Source of the DNA: Escherichia coli
GTDB taxonomy: Bacteria; Pseudomonadota; Gammaproteobacteria; Enterobacterales; Enterobacteriaceae
Assembly: GCF_045037415.1 (NCBI RefSeq)
Contig: NZ_CP173438.1
Strand: one strand, 5' to 3'
Length of the DNA stretch: 64,000 bases
Position 1 is the first letter of the stretch. Every line of letters begins with the position of its first letter. The translations under genes and the position numbers were made by a program. Below are positions 1 to 17,345 of the stretch, piece after piece. The notes beneath the pieces were generated by a model. It was given only the letters and a program-made list of their open reading frames with translations, did not search any database and had not been told where the DNA came from.

Positions 1-123
1 GAAATGAAACTGATGCGCAATCCGGGGTGTGAGGTGTGCGGGCAGTAACTGCCACCTCCAGGCCAGATAAGACGCGGCACTCCGCCACGTCATCAGCAAT
101 TTATGAGGATGCAGAACGTCCGG

Positions 124-786
124 TTAAATCGACGTTCTGCCAAACGCTCCCTGCCAGTCCTGCTCAAACTTCGCCACAGCGGCATCAACCGCCGGATAGC
201 TAATCATCTGTTGTGCCACATCCAGTGGCAGAGTAATTGATTCACACCCTGCCAGTAAGCAGTCCAGCGCCTGACGCGGGGTTTTGAAACTCGCGGCTAA
301 CACTTTCGCCTGCGGCGCATGCATTTTCAATAACTGGTGTAAGTCGGTCACAGTCTGAATACCGCTACCGCCCTGAGCATCAATACGATTAACGTAAGGC
401 GCAACATATTCCGCACCTGCCAGCGCCGACAGTAGCCCTTGTGCTGCGCCATATACCGCGGTTCCCAGCGTCGGAATCCCTTCCGCTTTTAACATCTTAA
501 TAGCTGCCAGCCCCTCTGCGGTCACCGGAACTTTCACCACGATATCCGCAATAATAGAACGCAATTTACGTGCGTCATTCACCATCCCTTCAGCAGTGGT
601 AGCCATTACCTGGGCAAACAGACGCCCCTGACCGCCCATCGCCTCGTGAAGTTGCGGAAGCACAACCTCCAGCGGTTTTTTACCCACTGCGATAATGCTT
701 GGGTTAGTGGTTACACCCGCCAGCGGAAAAATACGTGACAGCGCCTTCACCGCAACAACGTCTGAAGTATCCAGATACAGTTCCAT
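124..786 (-). CDS. fsaA: fructose-6-phosphate aldolase 1
   Basis: 220-aa product starting at internal Met (MELYLDTSD...) of the 267-aa ORF; transaldolase-like TIM-barrel sequence; matches recalled FsaA. Confidence 0.9.
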
Positions 787-849
787 AACCATCCTCAAAA
801 TGTACTTTTTGTCTGAATGTAGACTATCACGGGAAAACTCTCTGAACAG

Positions 850-863
850 TTGACGCACATCAA
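850..863. promoter_or_regulatory. candidate FNR site in the fsaA/ybiY divergent promoter
   Basis: TTGAC-gcac-ATCAA, one mismatch from FNR consensus TTGAT-N4-ATCAA; centred about 60 nt upstream of the ybiY ATG. Confidence 0.4.
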
Positions 864-916
864 TCCAACTTTCATTCGAAAGTATTTTAATGTTTGAACG
901 AAACAGAGAGGCAACT

Positions 917-1816
917 ATGATTTTCAATATTCAACGCTACTCGACCCATGATGGCCCCGGTATCCGCACGGTCGTATTTCTTAAAGGCTGTTCGCTGGGC
1001 TGCCGCTGGTGTCAGAACCCGGAAAGCCGCGCCCGCACGCAGGATCTGCTGTATGACCCACGACTCTGTCTGGAAGGCTGTGAGCTGTGCGCTAAGACCG
1101 CACCGGAAGTGATTGAGCGCGCGTTGAATGGTTTGCTTATTCATCGGGAAAAGTTAACCCCGGAGCATTTTACGGCGCTAACCGACTGCTGCCCGACACA
1201 GGCGTTAACCGTGTGTGGTGAAGTGAAAAGCGTTGAGGAGATCATGGCAACCGTTTTGCGCGATAAACCGTTTTACGATCGCAGCGGCGGCGGCTTAACA
1301 CTTTCTGGCGGAGAACCCTTTATGCAGCCGGAAATGGCGACAGCGCTACTGCAAGCCAGCCACGAAGCCGGTATTCATACTGCGGTAGAAACCTGTCTGC
1401 ATGTGCCGTGGAAATATATCGCCCCTTCTCTGTCCTATATTGATCTGTTTCTTGCCGATTTAAAACACGTTGCCGACGCGCCGTTTAAACAGTGGACCGA
1501 CGGTAACGCCGCCAGGGTGCTGGATAATCTGAAAAAACTCGCCGCAGCGGGCAAAAAAATCATTATCCGCGTGCCACTGATTCAGGGCTTTAATGCCGAC
1601 GAAACCTCTGTGAAAGCCATTACCGATTTTGCCGCCGACGAGCTGCACGTTAGCGAAATTCATTTCCTGCCCTACCACACGCTGGGCATCAACAAATATC
1701 ACTTACTTAATCTGCCCTATGACGCCCCGGAAAAACCGCTTGATGCGCCAGAACTGCTCGACTTTGCCCAGCAGTATGCCTGCCAGAAAGGGTTAACCGC
1801 GACCTTACGAGGATAA
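917..1816 (+). CDS. ybiY: glycyl-radical enzyme activating protein (PflE-like radical SAM activase)
   Basis: radical-SAM CxxxCxxC motif ([11 protein letters not shown]) plus an extra Cys-rich ferredoxin-like segment (CLEGCELC...[11 protein letters not shown]); start at 917 preferred over 890 because of the agagagg RBS. Confidence 0.88.
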
Positions 1817-1821
1817 CAACC

Positions 1822-4254
1822 ATGACCACACTGAAACTGGACACGCTCAGCGATCGCATTAAAGCGCACAAAAATGCGCTGGTGCATATTGTGAAACCGC
1901 CGGTCTGTACCGAGCGCGCGCAGCACTATACCGAGATGTATCAACAACATCTCGATAAGCCGATCCCGGTACGTCGCGCGCTGGCACTGGCGCATCACCT
2001 GGCGAATCGCACCATCTGGATCAAACATGATGAATTGATCATTGGCAACCAGGCAAGCGAAGTTCGCGCCGCGCCGATCTTCCCGGAATATACCGTCTCC
2101 TGGATCGAAAAAGAGATTGATGATCTGGCAGATCGTCCCGGTGCTGGTTTTGCGGTGAGTGAAGAGAACAAACGCGTTCTGCATGAAGTGTGCCCGTGGT
2201 GGCGCGGTCAGACCGTACAGGATCGCTGCTACGGCATGTTTACCGATGAGCAAAAAGGTCTGCTGGCGACCGGCATCATTAAAGCGGAGGGCAATATGAC
2301 CTCCGGCGATGCGCACCTGGCGGTCAATTTCCCGCTACTGCTGGAAAAAGGTCTTGATGGTCTGCGTGAGAAAGTGGCGGAACGTCGCTCGCGCATCAAT
2401 CTGACGGTTCTGGAAGATCTGCACGGCGAGCAATTCCTGAAAGCGATTGATATCGTGCTGGTGGCAGTCAGTGAACACATTGAACGTTTCGCTGCCCTGG
2501 CGCGTGAAATGGCCGCGACCGAAACCCGCGAAAGCCGTCGCGATGAACTGCTGACGATAGCAGAAAACTGCGATCTTATCGCCCACCAGCCGCCGCAGAC
2601 TTTCTGGCAGGCGCTGCAACTGTGTTACTTCATCCAGTTGATTTTGCAGATTGAATCTAACGGTCACTCGGTATCGTTTGGTCGTATGGACCAGTATCTC
2701 TATCCATACTATCGCCGTGACGTTGAACTGAACCAGACACTGGATCGCGAACACGCCATCGAGATGCTGCATAGCTGCTGGTTGAAATTGCTGGAAGTGA
2801 ACAAAATCCGCTCCGGCTCACACTCAAAAGCCTCTGCGGGAAGTCCGCTGTATCAGAACGTCACCATTGGCGGGCAAAATCTGGTTGATGGTCAACCGAT
2901 GGACGCGGTAAATCCACTCTCTTATGCGATCCTCGAATCTTGCGGTCGCCTGCGTTCGACTCAGCCTAACCTCAGCGTGCGTTACCATGCGGGTATGAGT
3001 AACGATTTCCTCGACGCCTGTGTTCAGGTGATCCGCTGCGGCTTCGGGATGCCGGCGTTCAACAACGACGAAATCGTCATCCCGGAATTTATTAAACTCG
3101 GTATTGAACCGCAGGACGCTTACGACTACGCAGCAATTGGTTGTATCGAAACCGCCGTCGGTGGCAAATGGGGCTATCGCTGTACCGGCATGAGCTTTAT
3201 CAACTTCGCCCGCGTGATGCTGGCGGCGCTGGAAGGCGGTCGTGATGCCACCAGCGGCAAAGTGTTCCTGCCACAAGAAAAAGCGTTGTCAGCGGGTAAC
3301 TTCAACAACTTCGATGAAGTAATGGACGCATGGGATACGCAAATCCGTTACTACACGCGTAAATCAATCGAAATCGAATATGTCGTCGACACCATGCTGG
3401 AAGAGAACGTACACGATATTCTCTGCTCGGCGCTGGTCGATGACTGTATTGAGCGAGCGAAAAGTATTAAGCAAGGCGGCGCGAAATATGACTGGGTTTC
3501 TGGCCTGCAGGTCGGCATTGCTAACCTCGGCAACAGCCTGGCGGCAGTGAAGAAACTGGTATTTGAACAGGGCGCGATTGGTCAGCAACAGCTGGCTGCC
3601 GCACTGGCGGATGACTTCGACGGTCTGACTCACGAGCAGCTGCGTCAGCGGCTGATTAACGGTGCGCCTAAGTACGGCAACGACGATGATACTGTCGATA
3701 CGCTGCTGGCTCGCGCTTATCAGACCTATATCGACGAACTAAAACAGTACCATAACCCACGCTACGGTCGTGGTCCGGTTGGCGGCAACTATTACGCGGG
3801 TACGTCGTCTATCTCCGCTAACGTACCCTTTGGCGCGCAGACTATGGCAACACCGGACGGGCGTAAAGCGCATACCCCGCTGGCAGAAGGCGCTAGTCCG
3901 GCCTCCGGTACTGACCATCTCGGCCCAACGGCGGTCATTGGCTCAGTAGGTAAACTGCCTACGGCCGCGATTCTCGGCGGCGTGCTGCTCAACCAGAAAC
4001 TGAATCCAGCAACGCTGGAGAACGAATCTGACAAGCAGAAACTGATGATCCTGCTGCGCACCTTCTTTGAAGTGCATAAAGGCTGGCATATTCAGTACAA
4101 CATCGTTTCCCGCGAGACGCTGCTGGAGGCGAAAAAACATCCGGATCAGTATCGCGATCTGGTAGTGCGCGTCGCGGGCTATTCCGCCTTCTTCACCGCG
4201 CTCTCTCCAGACGCTCAGGACGATATCATCGCCCGTACTGAACATATGCTGTAA
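1822..4254 (+). CDS. ybiW: glycyl radical enzyme, PFL-like (PflF), substrate unknown
   Basis: 810 aa; C-terminal glycine-radical motif RVAGYSAFF; single active-site Cys in GCIET; immediately downstream of its activase. Confidence 0.92.
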   Translation: MTTLKLDTLSDRIKAHKNALVHIVKPPVCTERAQHYTEMYQQHLDKPIPVRRALALAHHLANRTIWIKHDELIIGNQASEVRAAPIFPEYTVSWIEKEIDDLADRPGAGFAVSEENKRVLHEVCPWWRGQTVQDRCYGMFTDEQKGLLATGIIKAEGNMTSGDAHLAVNFPLLLEKGLDGLREKVAERRSRINLTVLEDLHGEQFLKAIDIVLVAVSEHIERFAALAREMAATETRESRRDELLTIAENCDLIAHQPPQTFWQALQLCYFIQLILQIESNGHSVSFGRMDQYLYPYYRRDVELNQTLDREHAIEMLHSCWLKLLEVNKIRSGSHSKASAGSPLYQNVTIGGQNLVDGQPMDAVNPLSYAILESCGRLRSTQPNLSVRYHAGMSNDFLDACVQVIRCGFGMPAFNNDEIVIPEFIKLGIEPQDAYDYAAIGCIETAVGGKWGYRCTGMSFINFARVMLAALEGGRDATSGKVFLPQEKALSAGNFNNFDEVMDAWDTQIRYYTRKSIEIEYVVDTMLEENVHDILCSALVDDCIERAKSIKQGGAKYDWVSGLQVGIANLGNSLAAVKKLVFEQGAIGQQQLAAALADDFDGLTHEQLRQRLINGAPKYGNDDDTVDTLLARAYQTYIDELKQYHNPRYGRGPVGGNYYAGTSSISANVPFGAQTMATPDGRKAHTPLAEGASPASGTDHLGPTAVIGSVGKLPTAAILGGVLLNQKLNPATLENESDKQKLMILLRTFFEVHKGWHIQYNIVSRETLLEAKKHPDQYRDLVVRVAGYSAFFTALSPDAQDDIIARTEHML

Positions 4255-4399
4255 TCTTCTCAGCCCGGCGGCGGCGTCGCCGGGCTAAATCATTCACATC
4301 ATCAATTTCAGCCTCGCTTTCATTCGAAATATAATTTGTGCTCTGCGTCACATTGTTATTACACTGTTACGGTTTCATTTTCGAGCCAGGAGCACACCT

Positions 4400-5215
4400 A
4401 TGAGCGTAAAAGTTATCGTCACAGACATGGACGGTACTTTTCTTAACGACGCCAAAACGTACAACCAACCACGTTTTATGGCGCAATATCAGGAACTGAA
4501 AAAGCGCGGCATTGAGTTCGTTGTCGCCAGCGGTAATCAGTATTACCAGCTTATTTCGTTCTTTCCTGAGCTAAAGGATGAGATCTCTTTTGTCGCGGAA
4601 AACGGCGCACTGGTTTACGAACATGGCAAGCAGTTGTTCCACGGCGAACTGACCCGACATGAATCGCGGATTGTTATTGGCGAGTTGCTAAAAGATAAGC
4701 AACTCAATTTTGTCGCCTGCGGTCTGCAAAGTGCATATGTCAGCGAAAATGCCCCCGAAGCATTCGTCGCACTGATGGCAAAACACTACCATCGCCTGAA
4801 ACCTGTAAAAGATTATCAGGAGATTGACGACGTACTGTTCAAGTTTTCGCTCAACCTGCCGGATGAACAAATCCCGTTAGTGATCGACAAACTGCACATA
4901 ACGCTGGATGGCATTATGAAACCCGTCACCAGTGGTTTTGGCTTTATCGACTTGATTATTCCCGGTCTACATAAAGCAAACGGTATTTCGCGGTTACTGA
5001 AACGCTGGGATCTGTCACCGCAAAATGTGGTAGCGATTGGCGACAGCGGTAACGATGCGGAGATGCTGAAAATGGCGCGTTATTCCTTTGCGATGAGCAA
5101 TGCTGCGGAAAACATTAAACAAATCGCCCGTTACGCTACCGATGATAATAATCATGAAGGCGCGCTGAATGTGATTCAGGCGGTGCTGGAAAATAAACCG
5201 CCGTTTAATCTTTGA
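4400..5215 (+). CDS. ybiV: HAD-family sugar phosphatase
   Basis: 271 aa; N-terminal DxDGT motif ([11 protein letters not shown]); Cof-type HAD. Confidence 0.9.
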
Positions 5216-5257
5216 TTATCACCAATTCAGTTTATTGAGAAAGTGCATGTCATTATA

Positions 5258-5405
5258 CCGGATACGGCGTGACCGCCTTATTTGGCATACAAAATCATGA
5301 AAATTCAATATATTGCGATACACTACCAGGCCTGATAAGCGTAGCGCACCAGGCAATCTTGCGTTTGTCATCAGTTTCAGTAGCCCTGACCATATCAGGG
5401 CTACT
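5258..5405. repeat. REP/BIME-type composite extragenic palindrome (copy A)
   Basis: REP-like palindromes (gccggatacggcg...cgccttat; aggcctgataagcgtagcgcaccaggca) around a shared core caatatattgc...ttgtcatcagt; homologous to 30051-30194. Confidence 0.7.
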
Positions 5406-5414
5406 GATAATAAC

Positions 5415-7007
5415 TTACTCGATCCCTTTACTACGCAGGTAATCTTCGTAATTACCGCTAAAGTCGATCACGCGTTCCGGGGTGATTTCCAGAATACGGG
5501 TCGCCAGGGAGCTTACAAACTCACGGTCGTGAGAAACAAAGATCAGCGTGCCCTGATACAGTTCCAGCGCCATGTTCAGCGACTCAATGGATTCCATATC
5601 CAGGTGGTTGGTCGGTTCGTCCATGATCAGAATGTTCGGCTTCTGCATCATTAACTTACCAAACAGCATCCGCCCTTTTTCCCCACCGGAAAGCACTTTA
5701 GCTGGCTTTTTGATGTCGTCCTGGCTGAACAGCAAACGACCGAGAATACTGCGCACCGCCTGCTCGTCATCGCCTTCCTGCTTCCACTGACTCATCCATT
5801 CGAACACGGTCAGATCATTTTCAAACTCATATTCGTGGTCCTGAGCGTAGTAACCAATGCGCGCGTTTTCAGACCATTTTACGGTGCCGCTGTCCGGTTG
5901 CAGATCGCCCACCAGCGTTTTCAGCAGCGTTGATTTACCGACGCCGTTGGTACCCAGTACCGCCAGTTTTTCACCCACTTCCAGCAGCAGGTTGAGATTT
6001 TTAAACAGTGGACCGTTATCAAACCCTTTAGTCAGACCTTCCACTTCTAGCGCGTTACGGAACAGTTTCTTATCCTGTTCAAAACGGATGAACGGGTTCT
6101 GACGGCTGGAAGCTTTCACCTCTTCCAGTTTGATTTTATCAATCTGGCGCGCGCGCGAAGTTGCCTGGCGAGATTTCGAGGCGTTGGCGCTAAAGCGGCT
6201 AACGAAAGATTGCAACTCAGCAATCTGCGCTTTCTTCTTCGCGTTATCAGCCAGCAGACGTTCACGCGCCTGAGTCGCCGCCGTCATGTACTCATCGTAG
6301 TTGCCCGGATAAACGCGCAGCTCGCCGTAATCCAGATCCGCCATGTGGGTACAAACCATGTTAAGGAAGTGACGGTCGTGCGAGATGATGATCATGGTGC
6401 TGTCACGCTCGTTCAGCACCTGTTCCAGCCAGCGAATGGTGTCGATATCGAGGTTGTTGGTCGGTTCGTCGAGCAGGAGAATGTCGGGATCAGCAAACAG
6501 CGCCTGAGCCAGCAGCACACGCAGCTTCCAGCCAGGAGCAACTTCACTCATCGGGCCGTAGTGCTGTTCCACTGGAATTCCCACGCCAAGCAACAGTTCA
6601 CCAGCGCGAGCTTCCGCAGAGTAACCGTCCATTTCGCCGTATTTCACTTCCAGATCGGCCACTTTATAGCCGTCTTCTTCACTCATTTCCGGCAAAGCAT
6701 AGATGCGGTCACGCTCCTGCTTCACTTCCCACAACTCTTTATGCCCCATGATCACCGTATCCAGCACAGTGAACTCTTCAAAGGCAAACTGATCCTGACG
6801 CAGCTTACCAATGCGTTCGTTGGGATCGAGGGAAACGTTACCCAACGTCGGCTCTAAGTCGCCGCCGAGGATCTTCATAAAGGTGGATTTACCACTACCG
6901 TTCGCGCCAATCAGGCCGTAACGGTTGCCGCCGCCGAATTTGACGGAAATGTTTTCAAACAACGGCTTACTGCCGAACTGCATGGTGACGTTACTGGAAA
7001 CTAACAC
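5415..7007 (-). CDS. ybiT: ABC-F family ATPase (tandem ABC domains, no permease)
   Basis: 530 aa; two Walker A motifs GANGSGKST and GTNGVGKST. Confidence 0.92.
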
Positions 7008-7225
7008 AGGCGTATCCTGAAAAGAGATATGACAAACCGCGCATTATGCCATAAGTCTGAAAGAAGATCCTGCTCCTCGCTTAAGGTCTACACTCAAGCC
7101 AAAGGCAAAAAATGTGATTTCGTACACATCTGATTTCACTGTGAGCTGGAATGAACTTATAATGCGCTTCCAGTACTCTAATATTCTCAACCCAATGGCC
7201 TGCCAGGCACAAAATCTCGCTTAAC

Positions 7226-8146
7226 ATGAATATGAAATTGAAAACATTATTCGCAGCGGCCTTCGCTGTTGTCGGCTTTTGCAGTACCGCCTCTGCGGTA
7301 ACTTATCCTCTGCCAACCGACGGGAGTCGCCTGGTTGGTCAGAATCAGGTGATCACCATTCCTGAAGGTAACACTCAGCCGCTGGAGTATTTTGCCGCCG
7401 AGTACCAGATGGGACTTTCCAATATGATGGAAGCGAACCCGGGTGTGGATACCTTCCTGCCGAAAGGCGGTACTGTACTGAACATTCCGCAGCAGCTGAT
7501 CCTGCCGGATACCGTTCATGAAGGCATCGTCATTAACAGTGCAGAGATGCGTCTGTATTACTATCCGAAAGGGACCAACACCGTTATCGTGCTGCCGATC
7601 GGCATTGGTCAGTTAGGCAAAGACACGCCTATCAACTGGACCACCAAAGTTGAGCGTAAAAAAGCAGGCCCGACCTGGACGCCGACCGCTAAAATGCACG
7701 CAGAGTACCGCGCTGCGGGCGAACCGCTTCCGGCGGTCGTTCCGGCTGGTCCGGATAACCCGATGGGGCTGTATGCACTCTACATCGGTCGCCTGTACGC
7801 TATCCATGGCACCAACGCCAACTTCGGTATCGGCCTGCGTGTAAGTCATGGTTGTGTGCGTCTGCGTAACGAAGACATCAAATTCCTGTTCGAGAAAGTA
7901 CCGGTCGGTACCCGCGTACAGTTTATTGATGAGCCGGTAAAAGCGACCACCGAGCCAGACGGCAGCCGTTATATTGAAGTCCATAACCCGCTGTCTACCA
8001 CCGAAGCCCAGTTTGAAGGTCAGGAAATTGTGCCAATTACCCTGACGAAGAGCGTGCAGACAGTGACCGGTCAGCCAGATGTTGACCAGGTTGTTCTGGA
8101 TGAAGCGATCAAAAATCGTTCCGGGATGCCGGTTCGTCTGAATTAA
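7226..8146 (+). CDS. ldtB: L,D-transpeptidase (Lpp-to-peptidoglycan linkage)
   Basis: 306 aa; signal peptide; YkuD catalytic motif SHGCVRL. Confidence 0.92.
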
Positions 8147-8163
8147 TCTTCAAAACGTAAAGC

Positions 8164-8190
8164 AAAGGCGGACTCATAATCCGCCTTTTT
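8164..8190. terminator. bidirectional rho-independent terminator between ldtB and ybiR
   Basis: hairpin aaaggcggactcataatccgcc followed by T-run; A-run on the other side. Confidence 0.7.
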
Positions 8191-8203
8191 AATTTGACAG
8201 ACC

Positions 8204-9322
8204 TTATCCCGCCGGGATCATAACCAACAAAACATATCCCACCAGCGCCGCCCACAACAGCATCGGTATCGAATAAAGATGAAAACGCCACCAGATACGG
8301 CGATCGTTCGCCATCCGTAACGCAATCAAATTTGCCAGCGATCCGGGTAATAAACCAAAGCCACCTACGTTTACCGCCCATGCCAGTAATAAAGACGGTG
8401 GCACATAATTGAGCAGCAAAATGGTACTCGGCACGTTACTGATCACCTGCGATAAACCGATCGCCGTTAGCCATAATCCGGGTTCGGATAAATGACTCAC
8501 GTTACTTAACACCCCCTGCAAAACTGGCAGTTGGGTTAGTAAATGGACGTCGATAAACATCGCCATAAACACCAGCAGCAGCGTCCAGTCCACACTGAGC
8601 ACCACGCGACGCGCCAGCAGCGCAAAGCCCGCCGCCACAATCACCAGTCCCCACAGCTCTTGTTTTAACTCCAGCGCCGTCAGAAAGACGATATACAGCC
8701 CCAGACAACTCCACACCAGCCGCGGTTTCCACTCCGGCGTTTGCCCTCCTGTATGGTACTGCAGCGCCTTTCCAGGGAAACAACACCAGCACAACAGCAG
8801 GAGTGTCAGCATCATTGCGCCAGCCAGCGGTGCCATTTGGGCAATAAATCCGGCAAACGAAAGACCAGAACGTCCCCAGATAAGAATATTTTGCGGGTTG
8901 CCAATTGGCGTCAGTAGCGAACCAGCATTGACTGCCAGCGCCTCAAAAATAATCAGCCGATTAACCGGGATCTCACACAGTCTTTTTAGCGTGATAGTCA
9001 GCGGAACAACTATAAACAGCGCGACATCGTTGGTCAGAAAGGTAGAAAGCAGCGCCGCCGCCAGTACCATAAACATCGCCAGCCGACGCTCCGTAGCAAA
9101 ACGGCGCACCATTTTGCGCCCCAGCACATCAAAATAACCGCTTAACTCGACACCTTTAGTCAGCAGCATCAGGCCGCTTAAGGTGATGATGGTGTGCCAG
9201 TCGATAGCAGCAGGCCAGGATTTCGGTGCAAAGGGAACGAAAAAACTTAATCCGATGCCAACAAGAATTAATAACTGAAAAAAACGATCGCCTTGCAGCG
9301 TGCGTAAAAAAGGCAGGCTCAT
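8204..9322 (-). CDS. ybiR: inner-membrane transporter (ArsB/NhaD-like permease)
   Basis: 372 aa multi-pass hydrophobic protein; start overlaps the mntR stop (ATGA), so co-transcribed with mntR. Confidence 0.88.
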
Positions 9323-17229: not shown

Positions 17230-17345
17230 CTTCTCTGCCTCCCTTTCCCCCGAAAGGGAGGCACACCAGATTCCTCTCATTTAAAATTGCCTCTCCCCCA
17301 GCATCTATACTTATCTTTTTGCTCTGTTTTCTCACTGGAGGAGTC

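Follow-up and report, generated by a model that had tools for sequence, protein, structure and literature searches.

The gene pair ybiY-ybiW raises the question of which reaction this glycyl radical enzyme (GRE) and its activating enzyme carry out, and which signals open the promoter in front of them. The window, by which we mean the whole 64-kb stretch of DNA that was analysed, is part of an E. coli chromosome and matches E. coli chromosomes with 100% identity; the locus is present in 5425 of 5426 complete genomes. The reading that we favour, to which we would give a probability of roughly 85%, is that ybiYW forms an operon for the anaerobic catabolism of 1,5-anhydroglucitol (1,5-AG; 1-deoxyglucose) gated by FNR and YciT. 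The substrate (2024), the binding of FNR (2013) and repression by YciT (2021-2026) are already published. The gain offered here is modest, consisting of a base-level map of the promoter with phylogenetic support for the FNR half-sites, a YciT-type palindrome and the -10 element, and a testable account of FNR binding that is 'silent' in glucose medium.

Table 1. Features of the fsaA-ybiYW-ybiV region, numbered from the first letter of the window.
Feature	Position	Strand	Details
fsaA	124..786	-	Pfam TAL_FSA and NCBIfam PRK12653 above cutoff; RefSeq name fsa
FNR palindrome TTGACGCACATCAA	850..863		centre 856.5; one mismatch to TTGAT-N4-ATCAA
Operator ACTTTC-ATTC-GAAAGT, probable YciT site	868..883		between FNR site and -10; conserved block 866-883
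Probable -10 hexamer TTTAAT	886..891	+	conserved block 885-891
Degenerate operator copy GTTTGAACGAAAC, low confidence	892..904		over predicted start; partial conservation at 893-894, 898, 900, 902-903
ybiY, radical-SAM activating enzyme for YbiW	917..1816	+	299 aa; Pfam Radical_SAM and Fer4_12
Radical-SAM motif CSLGCRWC, CX3CX2C (C25, C29, C32)	989..1012	+	YbiY aa 25-32; invariant, 79 orthologues
Cys-rich insert (C51, C55, C58, C91, C92, C100)	1067..1216	+	alignment with PflA and PflC
ybiW, glycyl radical enzyme	1822..4254	+	810 aa; Pfam PFL-like and Gly_radical
Cys loop GCIET (thiyl-radical Cys441, Glu443)	3139..3153	+	YbiW aa 440-444
Glycine-radical motif RVAGYSAFF (radical Gly786)	4168..4194	+	YbiW aa 783-791
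GC-rich hairpin, possible terminator or mRNA-stabilising element	4262..4286	+	directly 3' of ybiW stop
Second operator copy CTTTCATTCGAAAT upstream of ybiV	4317..4330		exact 13-mer repeat
CRP-like site TGTGC-N6-TCACA upstream of ybiV, candidate	4337..4352		one mismatch to consensus
ybiV, HAD-IIB (Cof-type) sugar phosphatase	4400..5215	+	Pfam Hydrolase_3, NCBIfam Cof subfamily

Enzyme class of YbiW and its activase

YbiW consists of a PFL-like domain (PF02901, 697 bits) followed by a C-terminal glycine-radical domain (PF01228, 113 bits) and scores 1409 bits against NCBIfam TIGR01774 (cutoff 678). It is identical to the K-12 protein, encoded at the same locus, at 805 of 810 positions (99%) and matches PDB entries 8id7 and 8yjn, both of them structures of YbiW, over its full length. 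Cys441 and Glu443 are invariant in the 76 full-length orthologues, and Gly786 is invariant as well. Cys441 aligns with the second cysteine of the Cys-Cys pair of PflB (residues 419-420, Cys420 with the initiator Met counted), while no Cys-Cys dipeptide is present anywhere in YbiW. The closest non-self match in the PDB is glycerol dehydratase (1r8w, E = 6e-164), followed by propanediol (diol) dehydratase (5i2a) and PflD; the PFL structures are distant (E = 3e-43). Because it has a single cysteine with a glutamate, is only 25.6% identical to PflB and has the dehydratases as its nearest relatives, YbiW is, judged by its sequence, a member of the dehydratase/lyase (1,2-eliminase) branch of the GREs, in the PFL2/glycerol dehydratase subfamily, and not a PFL. 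The RefSeq product name of the K-12 protein, 'putative pyruvate formate lyase', and the PFL-like fold common to both would suit a second pyruvate or 2-oxoacid formate-lyase, but the missing Cys-Cys pair, the low identity to PflB, a score of 160.8 bits for the canonical PFL equivalog TIGR01255, whose cutoff is 994.2, and the place of the PFL structures as the farthest full-length GRE matches leave this a probability close to zero. No NCBIfam equivalog scores above its cutoff for YbiW, and the names that RefSeq and NCBIfam give to ybiW lag behind the literature.

YbiY is identical to its K-12 counterpart at 292 of 299 positions (98%) and scores 368 bits against NCBIfam TIGR02494 (cutoff 174). 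Just 5 nt separate its end from the start of ybiW, so that an activase with the CX3CX2C motif is encoded alongside YbiW. An in-frame ATG at 890 was rejected as the start of ybiY, the conserved start being at 917. Relative to PflA, which has no Cys-rich insert, YbiY carries some 58 additional residues, in which C51, C55, C58 and C92 are invariant in the 79 orthologues and C100 nearly so; this insert is likely to bind an auxiliary [4Fe-4S] cluster, presumably a single one. The first-pass annotation had picked out both the radical-SAM motif and the Cys-rich insert of YbiY, as well as the glycine-radical motif and the lone active-site cysteine of YbiW, and had taken the latter for a lyase/dehydratase-type GRE instead of a PFL, all of which agrees with the alignments, the Cys-x-Glu motif and the family scores given above.

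Substrate, pathway and gene neighbourhood

The same annotation had given the substrate as unknown, which no longer holds. According to a 2025 review (PMC12441222), Ma et al. (JACS 2024, 146:26187) showed that YbiW converts 1,5-anhydroglucitol-6-phosphate (AG6P) to 1-deoxyfructose-6-phosphate, and section 5.1 of the review has this reaction supporting anaerobic growth on 1,5-AG; the deposited structures are the two matched above. Its guess of a sugar-derived substrate, made from the flanking fsaA and ybiV, was well aimed. With 805 of 810 residues identical and the locus shared, YbiW of the window is to be regarded as the orthologue of the characterised K-12 AG6P lyase.

In the proposed mechanism YbiY, a radical-SAM activase that presumably carries one additional cluster bound by cysteines, would place the radical on Gly786 of YbiW, from where it would pass to Cys441, and this residue would in turn abstract hydrogen from AG6P. 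Elimination of the ring C-O bond, in a step that would probably resemble that of the diol dehydratases, would then give 1-deoxyfructose-6-phosphate. FsaA, the product of the divergent gene, would act next, and is said to split this compound into glyceraldehyde-3-phosphate and hydroxyacetone. The pathway gave FsaA its long-missing physiological role, and it lets gut Enterobacteriaceae ferment 1,5-AG, a dietary and clinically monitored analogue of glucose, by radical chemistry.

Of 80 related loci, 60 have fsaA and ybiY divergent, or 61 when the window is counted, and this arrangement is kept across the Enterobacterales; in 53 of the 80, ybiV comes after ybiW in the same orientation. The hairpin behind ybiW has a fold energy of -22.5 kcal/mol (z = -4.4); it is not followed by a run of T and was not picked up by the terminator scan. 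That YbiW acts as a dehydratase of glycerol or 1,2-diols, with AG6P as a side activity, is very improbable. Such an activity would be in keeping with the two dehydratases nearest to it in the PDB, of which 1r8w is B12-independent, with the Cys-x-Glu motif that they share and with the depositors' name, 'Probable dehydratase YbiW'. Against it, the substrate and the growth phenotype are published (PMC12441222), no NCBIfam equivalog reaches its cutoff, genes for diol utilisation or a microcompartment are absent from the ybiYW context, and the pair is instead conserved beside a sugar-phosphate aldolase and a phosphatase or, in Yersinia, at a sugar-phosphate stress locus.

In five Yersinia species ybiYW is placed behind the SgrR-controlled sgrS promoter. 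This placement is an independent tie of ybiYW to sugar-phosphate stress.

Control of the ybiY promoter

Across 61 distinct intergenic regions, blocks of conservation are confined to the two FNR half-sites, a palindrome and the -10 element. The half-sites, TTGA at 850-853 and TCAA at 860-863, keep one fixed position in 73 of the 80 related loci, with variable bases between them. Sites of one-mismatch quality number 8 in the 64-kb window where 2.3 are expected, and the sequence match by itself is modest evidence. In K-12 the predicted site, listed as 'ybiY/fsaA', lies under an FNR ChIP-seq/ChIP-chip peak (Myers 2013, Tables S5, S6, S9). At the orthologous promoter of Salmonella, that of pflE, hypoxia induces expression 150-fold; activity was seen with a 100-bp fragment that includes the palindrome TTGACGCACATCAA, while a 50-bp fragment without it was silent, and changing TTTAAT to TGTCAT abolished expression. 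The Reg-Seq preprint likewise has a ybiY start site that is active only anaerobically. From the geometry of these elements, transcription is predicted to start near A898, which would put the centre of the FNR site at -41.5, a fit that depends on TTTAAT being the -10. FNR bound at about this position would activate transcription of ybiY once oxygen is absent. The simple promoter scan did not call the ybiY promoter itself; its sole call, a TTGAAC/TATGAT pair over the ybiY start codon, is not believed to be a promoter.

A second element, a palindrome, separates the FNR site from the -10; in 72 of 73 loci its first base follows that of the FNR core by 19 bp. Across genera the arms of the ybiY copy are conserved and its centre varies, and the ybiV copy similarly keeps the arms CTTTC/GAAA around a centre of ATTC, GAAT or ATAT, with the CRP-like site conserved beside it. 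TTTC-(ATTC or GAAT)-GAAA is the operator common to ybiY, ybiV and, in K-12, ybiU; TTTC-N4-GAAA occurs four times in a 9-kb K-12 stretch against 0.18 expected, three of the four being just upstream of these genes. At the degenerate copy other genera have CTTTATACGAAAG or CTTCATACGCAAC. The palindrome is probably the site of YciT, a protein with HTH_DeoR and DeoRC sensor domains. Published YciT ChIP-exo peaks are found at ybiY (signal-to-noise 45) and ybiV (24), with coordinates 100-170 bp off the palindromes; deletion of yciT raises expression by log2 values of 7.7 for ybiY, 7.0 for ybiU, about 3 for ybiW, 2.2 for ybiV and 1.8 for fsaA; and DNA-affinity mass spectrometry (Reg-Seq) found YciT enriched on the ybiY promoter. 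Counting from a predicted start of its own, the Reg-Seq preprint has YciT near -5 and an activator that it does not name near -20; a geometry of -41.5 and -23 could be squared with these positions only by a start some 20 bp upstream of 898.

Other candidates for the operator were set aside. The sgrS promoters of E. coli and Yersinia show no resemblance to it that would point to SgrR, and none of Cra, Mlc/NagC, KdgR, GlpR, AgaR or LacI-type regulators, going by their consensus sequences, fits an even-length TTTC/GAAA palindrome. A palindrome with perfect arms at 17243-17256, upstream of ybiO, is regarded as a coincidence and not a third YciT site, because it forms the centre of a GC-rich hairpin that follows glnQ, and because the ybiO peak in the literature is weak and maps some 150 bp away. 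No TTTC-N4-GAAA operator was found in the 20-kb pflD/frw/fsaB/gldA region of K-12, and the surroundings of yciT hold one distant match, inside ymiB, with no evidence for autoregulation.

YciT would repress from two copies of the palindrome, the one that separates the FNR site from the -10 and the one in front of ybiV. This repression would have to be lifted, and the presumed signal for it is one of the sugar phosphates of the pathway. The operator would thereby account for the finding that ybiY shows no FNR-dependent change of expression in K-12 in anaerobic glucose minimal medium (Myers 2013), in which FNR binding alone would not suffice. The near-consensus FNR palindrome and the anaerobic expression proposed on first pass are both borne out, the one by its conserved half-sites and its occupancy in K-12, the other by Reg-Seq and the Salmonella pflE promoter; what that account of the regulation overlooked is the second conserved operator.

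A ChIP peak yet no FNR-dependent change could also mean that FNR binds unproductively, anaerobic induction being nothing but relief from YciT and the left half of the palindrome, TTGACG, serving as a -35 element. The sequence matches TTGACA at five of six positions, and the Reg-Seq authors, whose motif scan found no activator, propose YciT repression with oxygen and relief anaerobically. We think this unlikely. At 30 bp from the conserved TTTAAT, TTGACG is too remote to serve as a -35, and TCAA is conserved as well as the -35-like TTGA; the site is occupied by FNR in vivo (Myers 2013); the Salmonella fragment with operator and -10 but without the palindrome was silent; and no oxygen sensor is known in YciT, which has just a domain of the DeoRC sugar-phosphate type.

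Activation by FNR can be joined with YciT in a two-input gate, in which FNR would report anoxia and YciT a sugar phosphate such as AG6P or 1-deoxyfructose-6-phosphate; the glucose-phosphate stress response might also have AG6P as a natural trigger. The latter idea comes from the Yersinia that run ybiYW from an SgrR-dependent sgrS promoter, and from the YciT operator shared by the phosphatase gene ybiV, whose product could be a safety valve. We put this combined model forward tentatively, with the odds somewhat against it. The Salmonella reporter is inducible by hypoxia without added substrate, which the model can accommodate only with titration of the repressor by the multicopy plasmid. A single model joining FNR, YciT and the 2024 enzymology was not found in the literature examined, and as late as its 2026 version the Reg-Seq preprint treats ybiYW as unannotated.

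Comparison with known systems

The genes and their neighbours are the same as those of E. coli K-12 (b0823/b0824), with five substitutions in YbiW, seven in YbiY and no ybiU between ybiV and ybiT in the window strain. The fsaA-ybiY intergenic region is identical at 127 of 130 positions, the FNR site, operator and -10 fully so. The promoter would resemble the class II FNR-activated promoters of categories 3-5 in Myers 2013, which a further regulator holds off until its own condition applies, in having a near-consensus palindrome one turn upstream of the probable -10, and in being occupied in vivo and silent until the second condition is met; its second factor would differ, being a DeoR-family repressor site in the spacer and not NarL/NarP, CRP or Fur. 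A combination of FNR with a DeoR-family repressor in the spacer was not found described in the literature examined.

The nearest system within E. coli is the paralogous pair PflD/PflC, the 1,5-anhydromannitol-6-phosphate enzyme (PDB 8yjo) and its activase. PflD has a single Cys-x-Glu, as GCVEL, and the same glycine motif, RVAGYSAFF, and is reported (PMC12441222) to yield the product of YbiW from the C2 epimer; the two enzymes are nevertheless only 39.7% identical, the Cys insert of PflC is shorter than that of YbiY, and pflD/pflC, unlike ybiYW, lie within the frw PTS cluster adjoining fsaB-gldA. PflB/PflA share the fold, the glycine-radical motif and activation by radical SAM with YbiW/YbiY and are controlled by FNR, as ybiYW probably is, but PflB has a Cys-Cys pair and cleaves a C-C bond with CoA. 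By sequence YbiW falls in the same clade as glycerol dehydratase (1r8w), propanediol dehydratase, CutC, HypD, IslA and HpsG, and has in common with the 1,2-eliminating GREs the single thiyl cysteine, the glutamate two residues on and an activase with extra Cys clusters. It is set apart from them by its leaving group: according to PMC12441222, what leaves in YbiW is the oxygen in the ring of a phosphorylated anhydro-sugar, as against water, an amine or sulfite in the others.

Enzyme class and substrate of YbiW

Both motifs picked out in the first-pass annotation are present in YbiW, the glycine-radical motif RVAGYSAFF at residues 783-791 and GCIET, with its single cysteine, at residues 440-444; there is no Cys-Cys pair in the protein. 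In an alignment to K-12 PflB and PflD, to which YbiW is 25.6% and 39.7% identical respectively, Cys441 is aligned with the second cysteine of the pair in PflB, and Gly786 with the radical glycine of pyruvate formate lyase (PFL). The best matches amongst solved structures, both full-length, are 8id7 and 8yjn, entitled 'Probable dehydratase YbiW', followed by B12-independent glycerol dehydratase (E = 6e-164), diol dehydratase and PflD (8yjo), with PFL far down the list (E = 3e-43). NCBIfam places YbiW in the PFL2/glycerol dehydratase subfamily with 1409 bits against a cutoff of 678, while the PFL equivalog model gives 161 bits, well under its cutoff of 994, and none of the NCBIfam equivalog models assigns the protein. 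From the structure ranking and the NCBIfam scores, therefore, YbiW had rightly been placed with the dehydratase/lyase-type glycyl radical enzymes (GREs).

The original observation is confirmed and the biology read from it was right; calling the substrate unknown was wrong, since it has been published (Ma et al, J Am Chem Soc 2024, 146:26187), as summarised in section 5.1 of a 2025 review (PMC12441222). According to that summary, the PTS phosphorylates 1,5-anhydroglucitol and 1,5-anhydromannitol, and YbiW and PflD cleave these 6-phosphates to 1-deoxyfructose-6-phosphate in a strictly anaerobic glycyl-radical reaction that supports growth in E. coli as well as in many gut bacteria. The YbiW of the window is identical to the K-12 protein at 805 of 810 residues and the published function therefore transfers. 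Reportedly, FsaA/FsaB then split 1-deoxyfructose-6-phosphate into glyceraldehyde-3-phosphate and hydroxyacetone, the latter being reduced to 1,2-propanediol by GldA.

The enzyme, its structure, the binding of FNR and the repressor are already in the literature, and what could still be added, on the effector of YciT, on direct FNR dependence and on what YbiV does, would be incremental. The database annotation of ybiW is behind this literature. The K-12 RefSeq record (NC_000913.3) still has 'putative pyruvate formate lyase', the product in other genomes is 'glycyl radical protein', and NCBIfam release 20 holds subfamily models only, for YbiW and YbiY alike.

Gene neighbourhood and the YbiY activase

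Positions 1-5400 of the window are 100% identical to several complete E. coli genomes, where the sequence is chromosomal, and the locus was found in 5425 of 5426 complete genomes, annotated moeB, fsa, ybiY, ybiW and ybiV. Amongst 80 Enterobacterales loci encoding close YbiW relatives, fsaA and ybiY are divergent in 60 (61 with the window included) and in 53 ybiW is followed by ybiV in the same orientation. An ATG at 890 proposed by the ORF finder as the start of ybiY was rejected, this start being used by no orthologue.

Features of the fsaA-ybiV region in the window
Feature	Position	Strand	Description
fsaA	124..786	-	Pfam TAL_FSA
Palindrome	868-883		ACTTTC-ATTC-GAAAGT; in the spacer between FNR site and -10
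ybiY	917..1816	+	299 aa; Pfam Radical_SAM plus Fer4_12
ybiW	1822..4254	+	810 aa; Pfam PFL-like plus Gly_radical
Hairpin	4262-4286		directly 3' of the ybiW stop; -22.5 kcal/mol, z = -4.4; no T-run behind
ybiV	4400..5215	+	Pfam HAD-IIB hydrolase

The gene ybiU (DUF1479/Gig2-like), which in K-12 sits between ybiV and ybiT, is absent here, its place being taken by 199 bp of REP-like sequence from the ybiV stop to the ybiT stop (5216-5414). This junction is common to 1052 of the 5426 complete genomes. As ybiU is controlled by YciT in K-12, the lineage has therefore lost one member of the YciT set.

The radical-SAM motif and the extra cysteine-rich insert previously ascribed to YbiY were both recovered, the former as CX3CX2C at residues 25-32 and the latter as ~58 residues with six cysteines relative to PflA. 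C51, C55, C58 and C92 are invariant across 79 orthologues, which suggests that the insert binds one auxiliary cluster, not two as in many GRE activases. Between genera (L001-L080, the 80 fetched loci) YbiW is 85-99% identical and the activase 64-96%, with the cysteine ligands of YbiY still invariant.

FNR and the ybiY promoter

The FNR-like site was also correctly identified, TTGACGCACATCAA at 850-863 having one mismatch to the consensus. On its own such a match is weak evidence, because the window has 8 near-matches of that quality against 2.3 expected, one of them at the end of ybiV (5212-5225). Myers et al (2013; PMC3688515) list the reverse complement, TTGATGTGCGTCAA (PatSer score 14.54), as a predicted FNR site under an FNR ChIP-seq peak named 'ybiY/fsaA', for which ybiY is the estimated target. 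In their anaerobic glucose minimal medium this peak was not accompanied by an FNR-dependent change in expression, and it is amongst those without a known co-regulator. K-12 and the window differ at 3 of 130 intergenic positions, none inside the elements discussed here. A second FNR ChIP peak from that study, ybiS/ybiT, maps to ~7100-7130 in the ybiT/ybiS intergenic region, where there is a CRP-like site, TGTGATTTCGTACACA, at 7113-7128.

In Salmonella the orthologue is pflE, one of the standard hypoxia-inducible promoters, with 150-fold induction (Leschner et al, 2012). A 100-bp fragment containing TTGACGCACATCAA was active, a 50-bp fragment starting at CTTTCATTCGAAAG, and hence without the palindrome, was silent, and changing TTTAAT to TGTCAT killed expression (Leschner et al, 2012).

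Across 61 fsaA-ybiY intergenic regions, every one distinct, conservation of at least 85% is confined to 850-853 (TTGA), 860-863 (TCAA), 866-883 and 885-891, plus a few columns in 893-903; within the FNR palindrome the central bases are free to vary. The FNR core and the second palindrome occur together in 73 of the 80 loci, with a start-to-start spacing of 19 bp in 72 of the 73. If TTTAAT (886-891) is the -10, the geometry would put the predicted start near A898 and the FNR centre at -41.5, a class II position. In a Salmonella enterica subsp. diarizonae locus (L010) there is no fsaA beside ybiY, moeA-moeB leading straight into the promoter, and ybiV is inverted; the operator, the -10 and the FNR palindrome, here a perfect consensus, are all kept.

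The putative YciT operator and the Yersinia arrangement

A 13-mer of the second palindrome, CTTTCATTCGAAA, is repeated at 4317-4329 upstream of ybiV. Across genera the arms of the ybiV copy are constant and its centre is ATTC, GAAT or ATAT, the signature of a site bound by a dimeric protein. A third copy, TTTC-GAAT-GAAA, lies about 25 nt ahead of ybiU in K-12, and TTTC-N4-GAAA was found 4 times in this 9-kb K-12 stretch against 0.18 expected. ChIP-exo gave peaks for YciT, a DeoR-family protein, at ybiY (signal-to-noise 45) and ybiV (24), and deletion of yciT de-repressed ybiY (+7.7 log2) and ybiU (+7.0), amongst the strongest effects, as well as ybiW (about +3), ybiV (+2.2) and fsaA (+1.8) (Gao et al, 2021; PMC8464067). 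According to a Reg-Seq preprint (10.1101/2025.05.13.653802), ybiY has a start site that is used under anaerobic conditions only, and DNA-affinity mass spectrometry with its promoter recovered YciT. YciT itself has HTH_DeoR and DeoRC sensor domains. The palindrome is probably the operator for YciT.

The ChIP-exo peak coordinates are offset by 100-170 bp from the conserved palindromes (868-883 and 4317-4330), the ybiY peak lying within fsaA, in its initial 35 nt, and the 'ybiV' peak within the 3'-terminal part of ybiV, ahead of ybiU. This could come from the coordinate version or from peak calling; the Reg-Seq preprint also remarks on a discrepancy of ~100 bp. Its numbering, with YciT near -5 and an unnamed activator near -20, implies a start ~20 bp upstream of A898. 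The hairpin behind ybiW may terminate the ybiYW transcript, or transcription may run on into ybiV. Besides its putative operator copy, ybiV has a promoter-like TATAAT at 4330-4335 and, just downstream of the copy, a CRP-like sequence, TGTGCTCTGCGTCACA (4337-4352), where TGTGC/G-N6-TCACA is conserved across genera. A further sequence with perfect operator arms, CTTTCCCCCGAAAG at 17236-17263, is the core of the GC-rich glnQ-ybiO hairpin and is probably a terminator that resembles the operator by chance; a weak ybiO YciT peak (signal-to-noise 2.7; Gao et al, 2021) lies ~150 bp from it, within ybiO.

In the model we propose, FNR would provide the anaerobic signal and YciT a separate substrate signal, which would account for FNR being bound yet silent in glucose medium. 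Neither the FNR site nor the TTTC-N4-GAAA palindrome was found at the ybiYW loci of five Yersinia species (L074, L076, L078, L079 and L080; ~4960-8700 in locus coordinates). In these species the order is sgrR, the SgrR-controlled sgrS promoter, a homologue of E. coli PsgrS, then immediately ybiYW, the SgrS core and setA. The Y. enterocolitica arrangement was described by Horler and Vanderpool (2009) before the substrate had been identified. It fits with a non-metabolisable glucose-analogue phosphate being the problem that YbiW solves, and suggests that 1,5-anhydroglucitol-6-phosphate is connected with glucose-phosphate stress.
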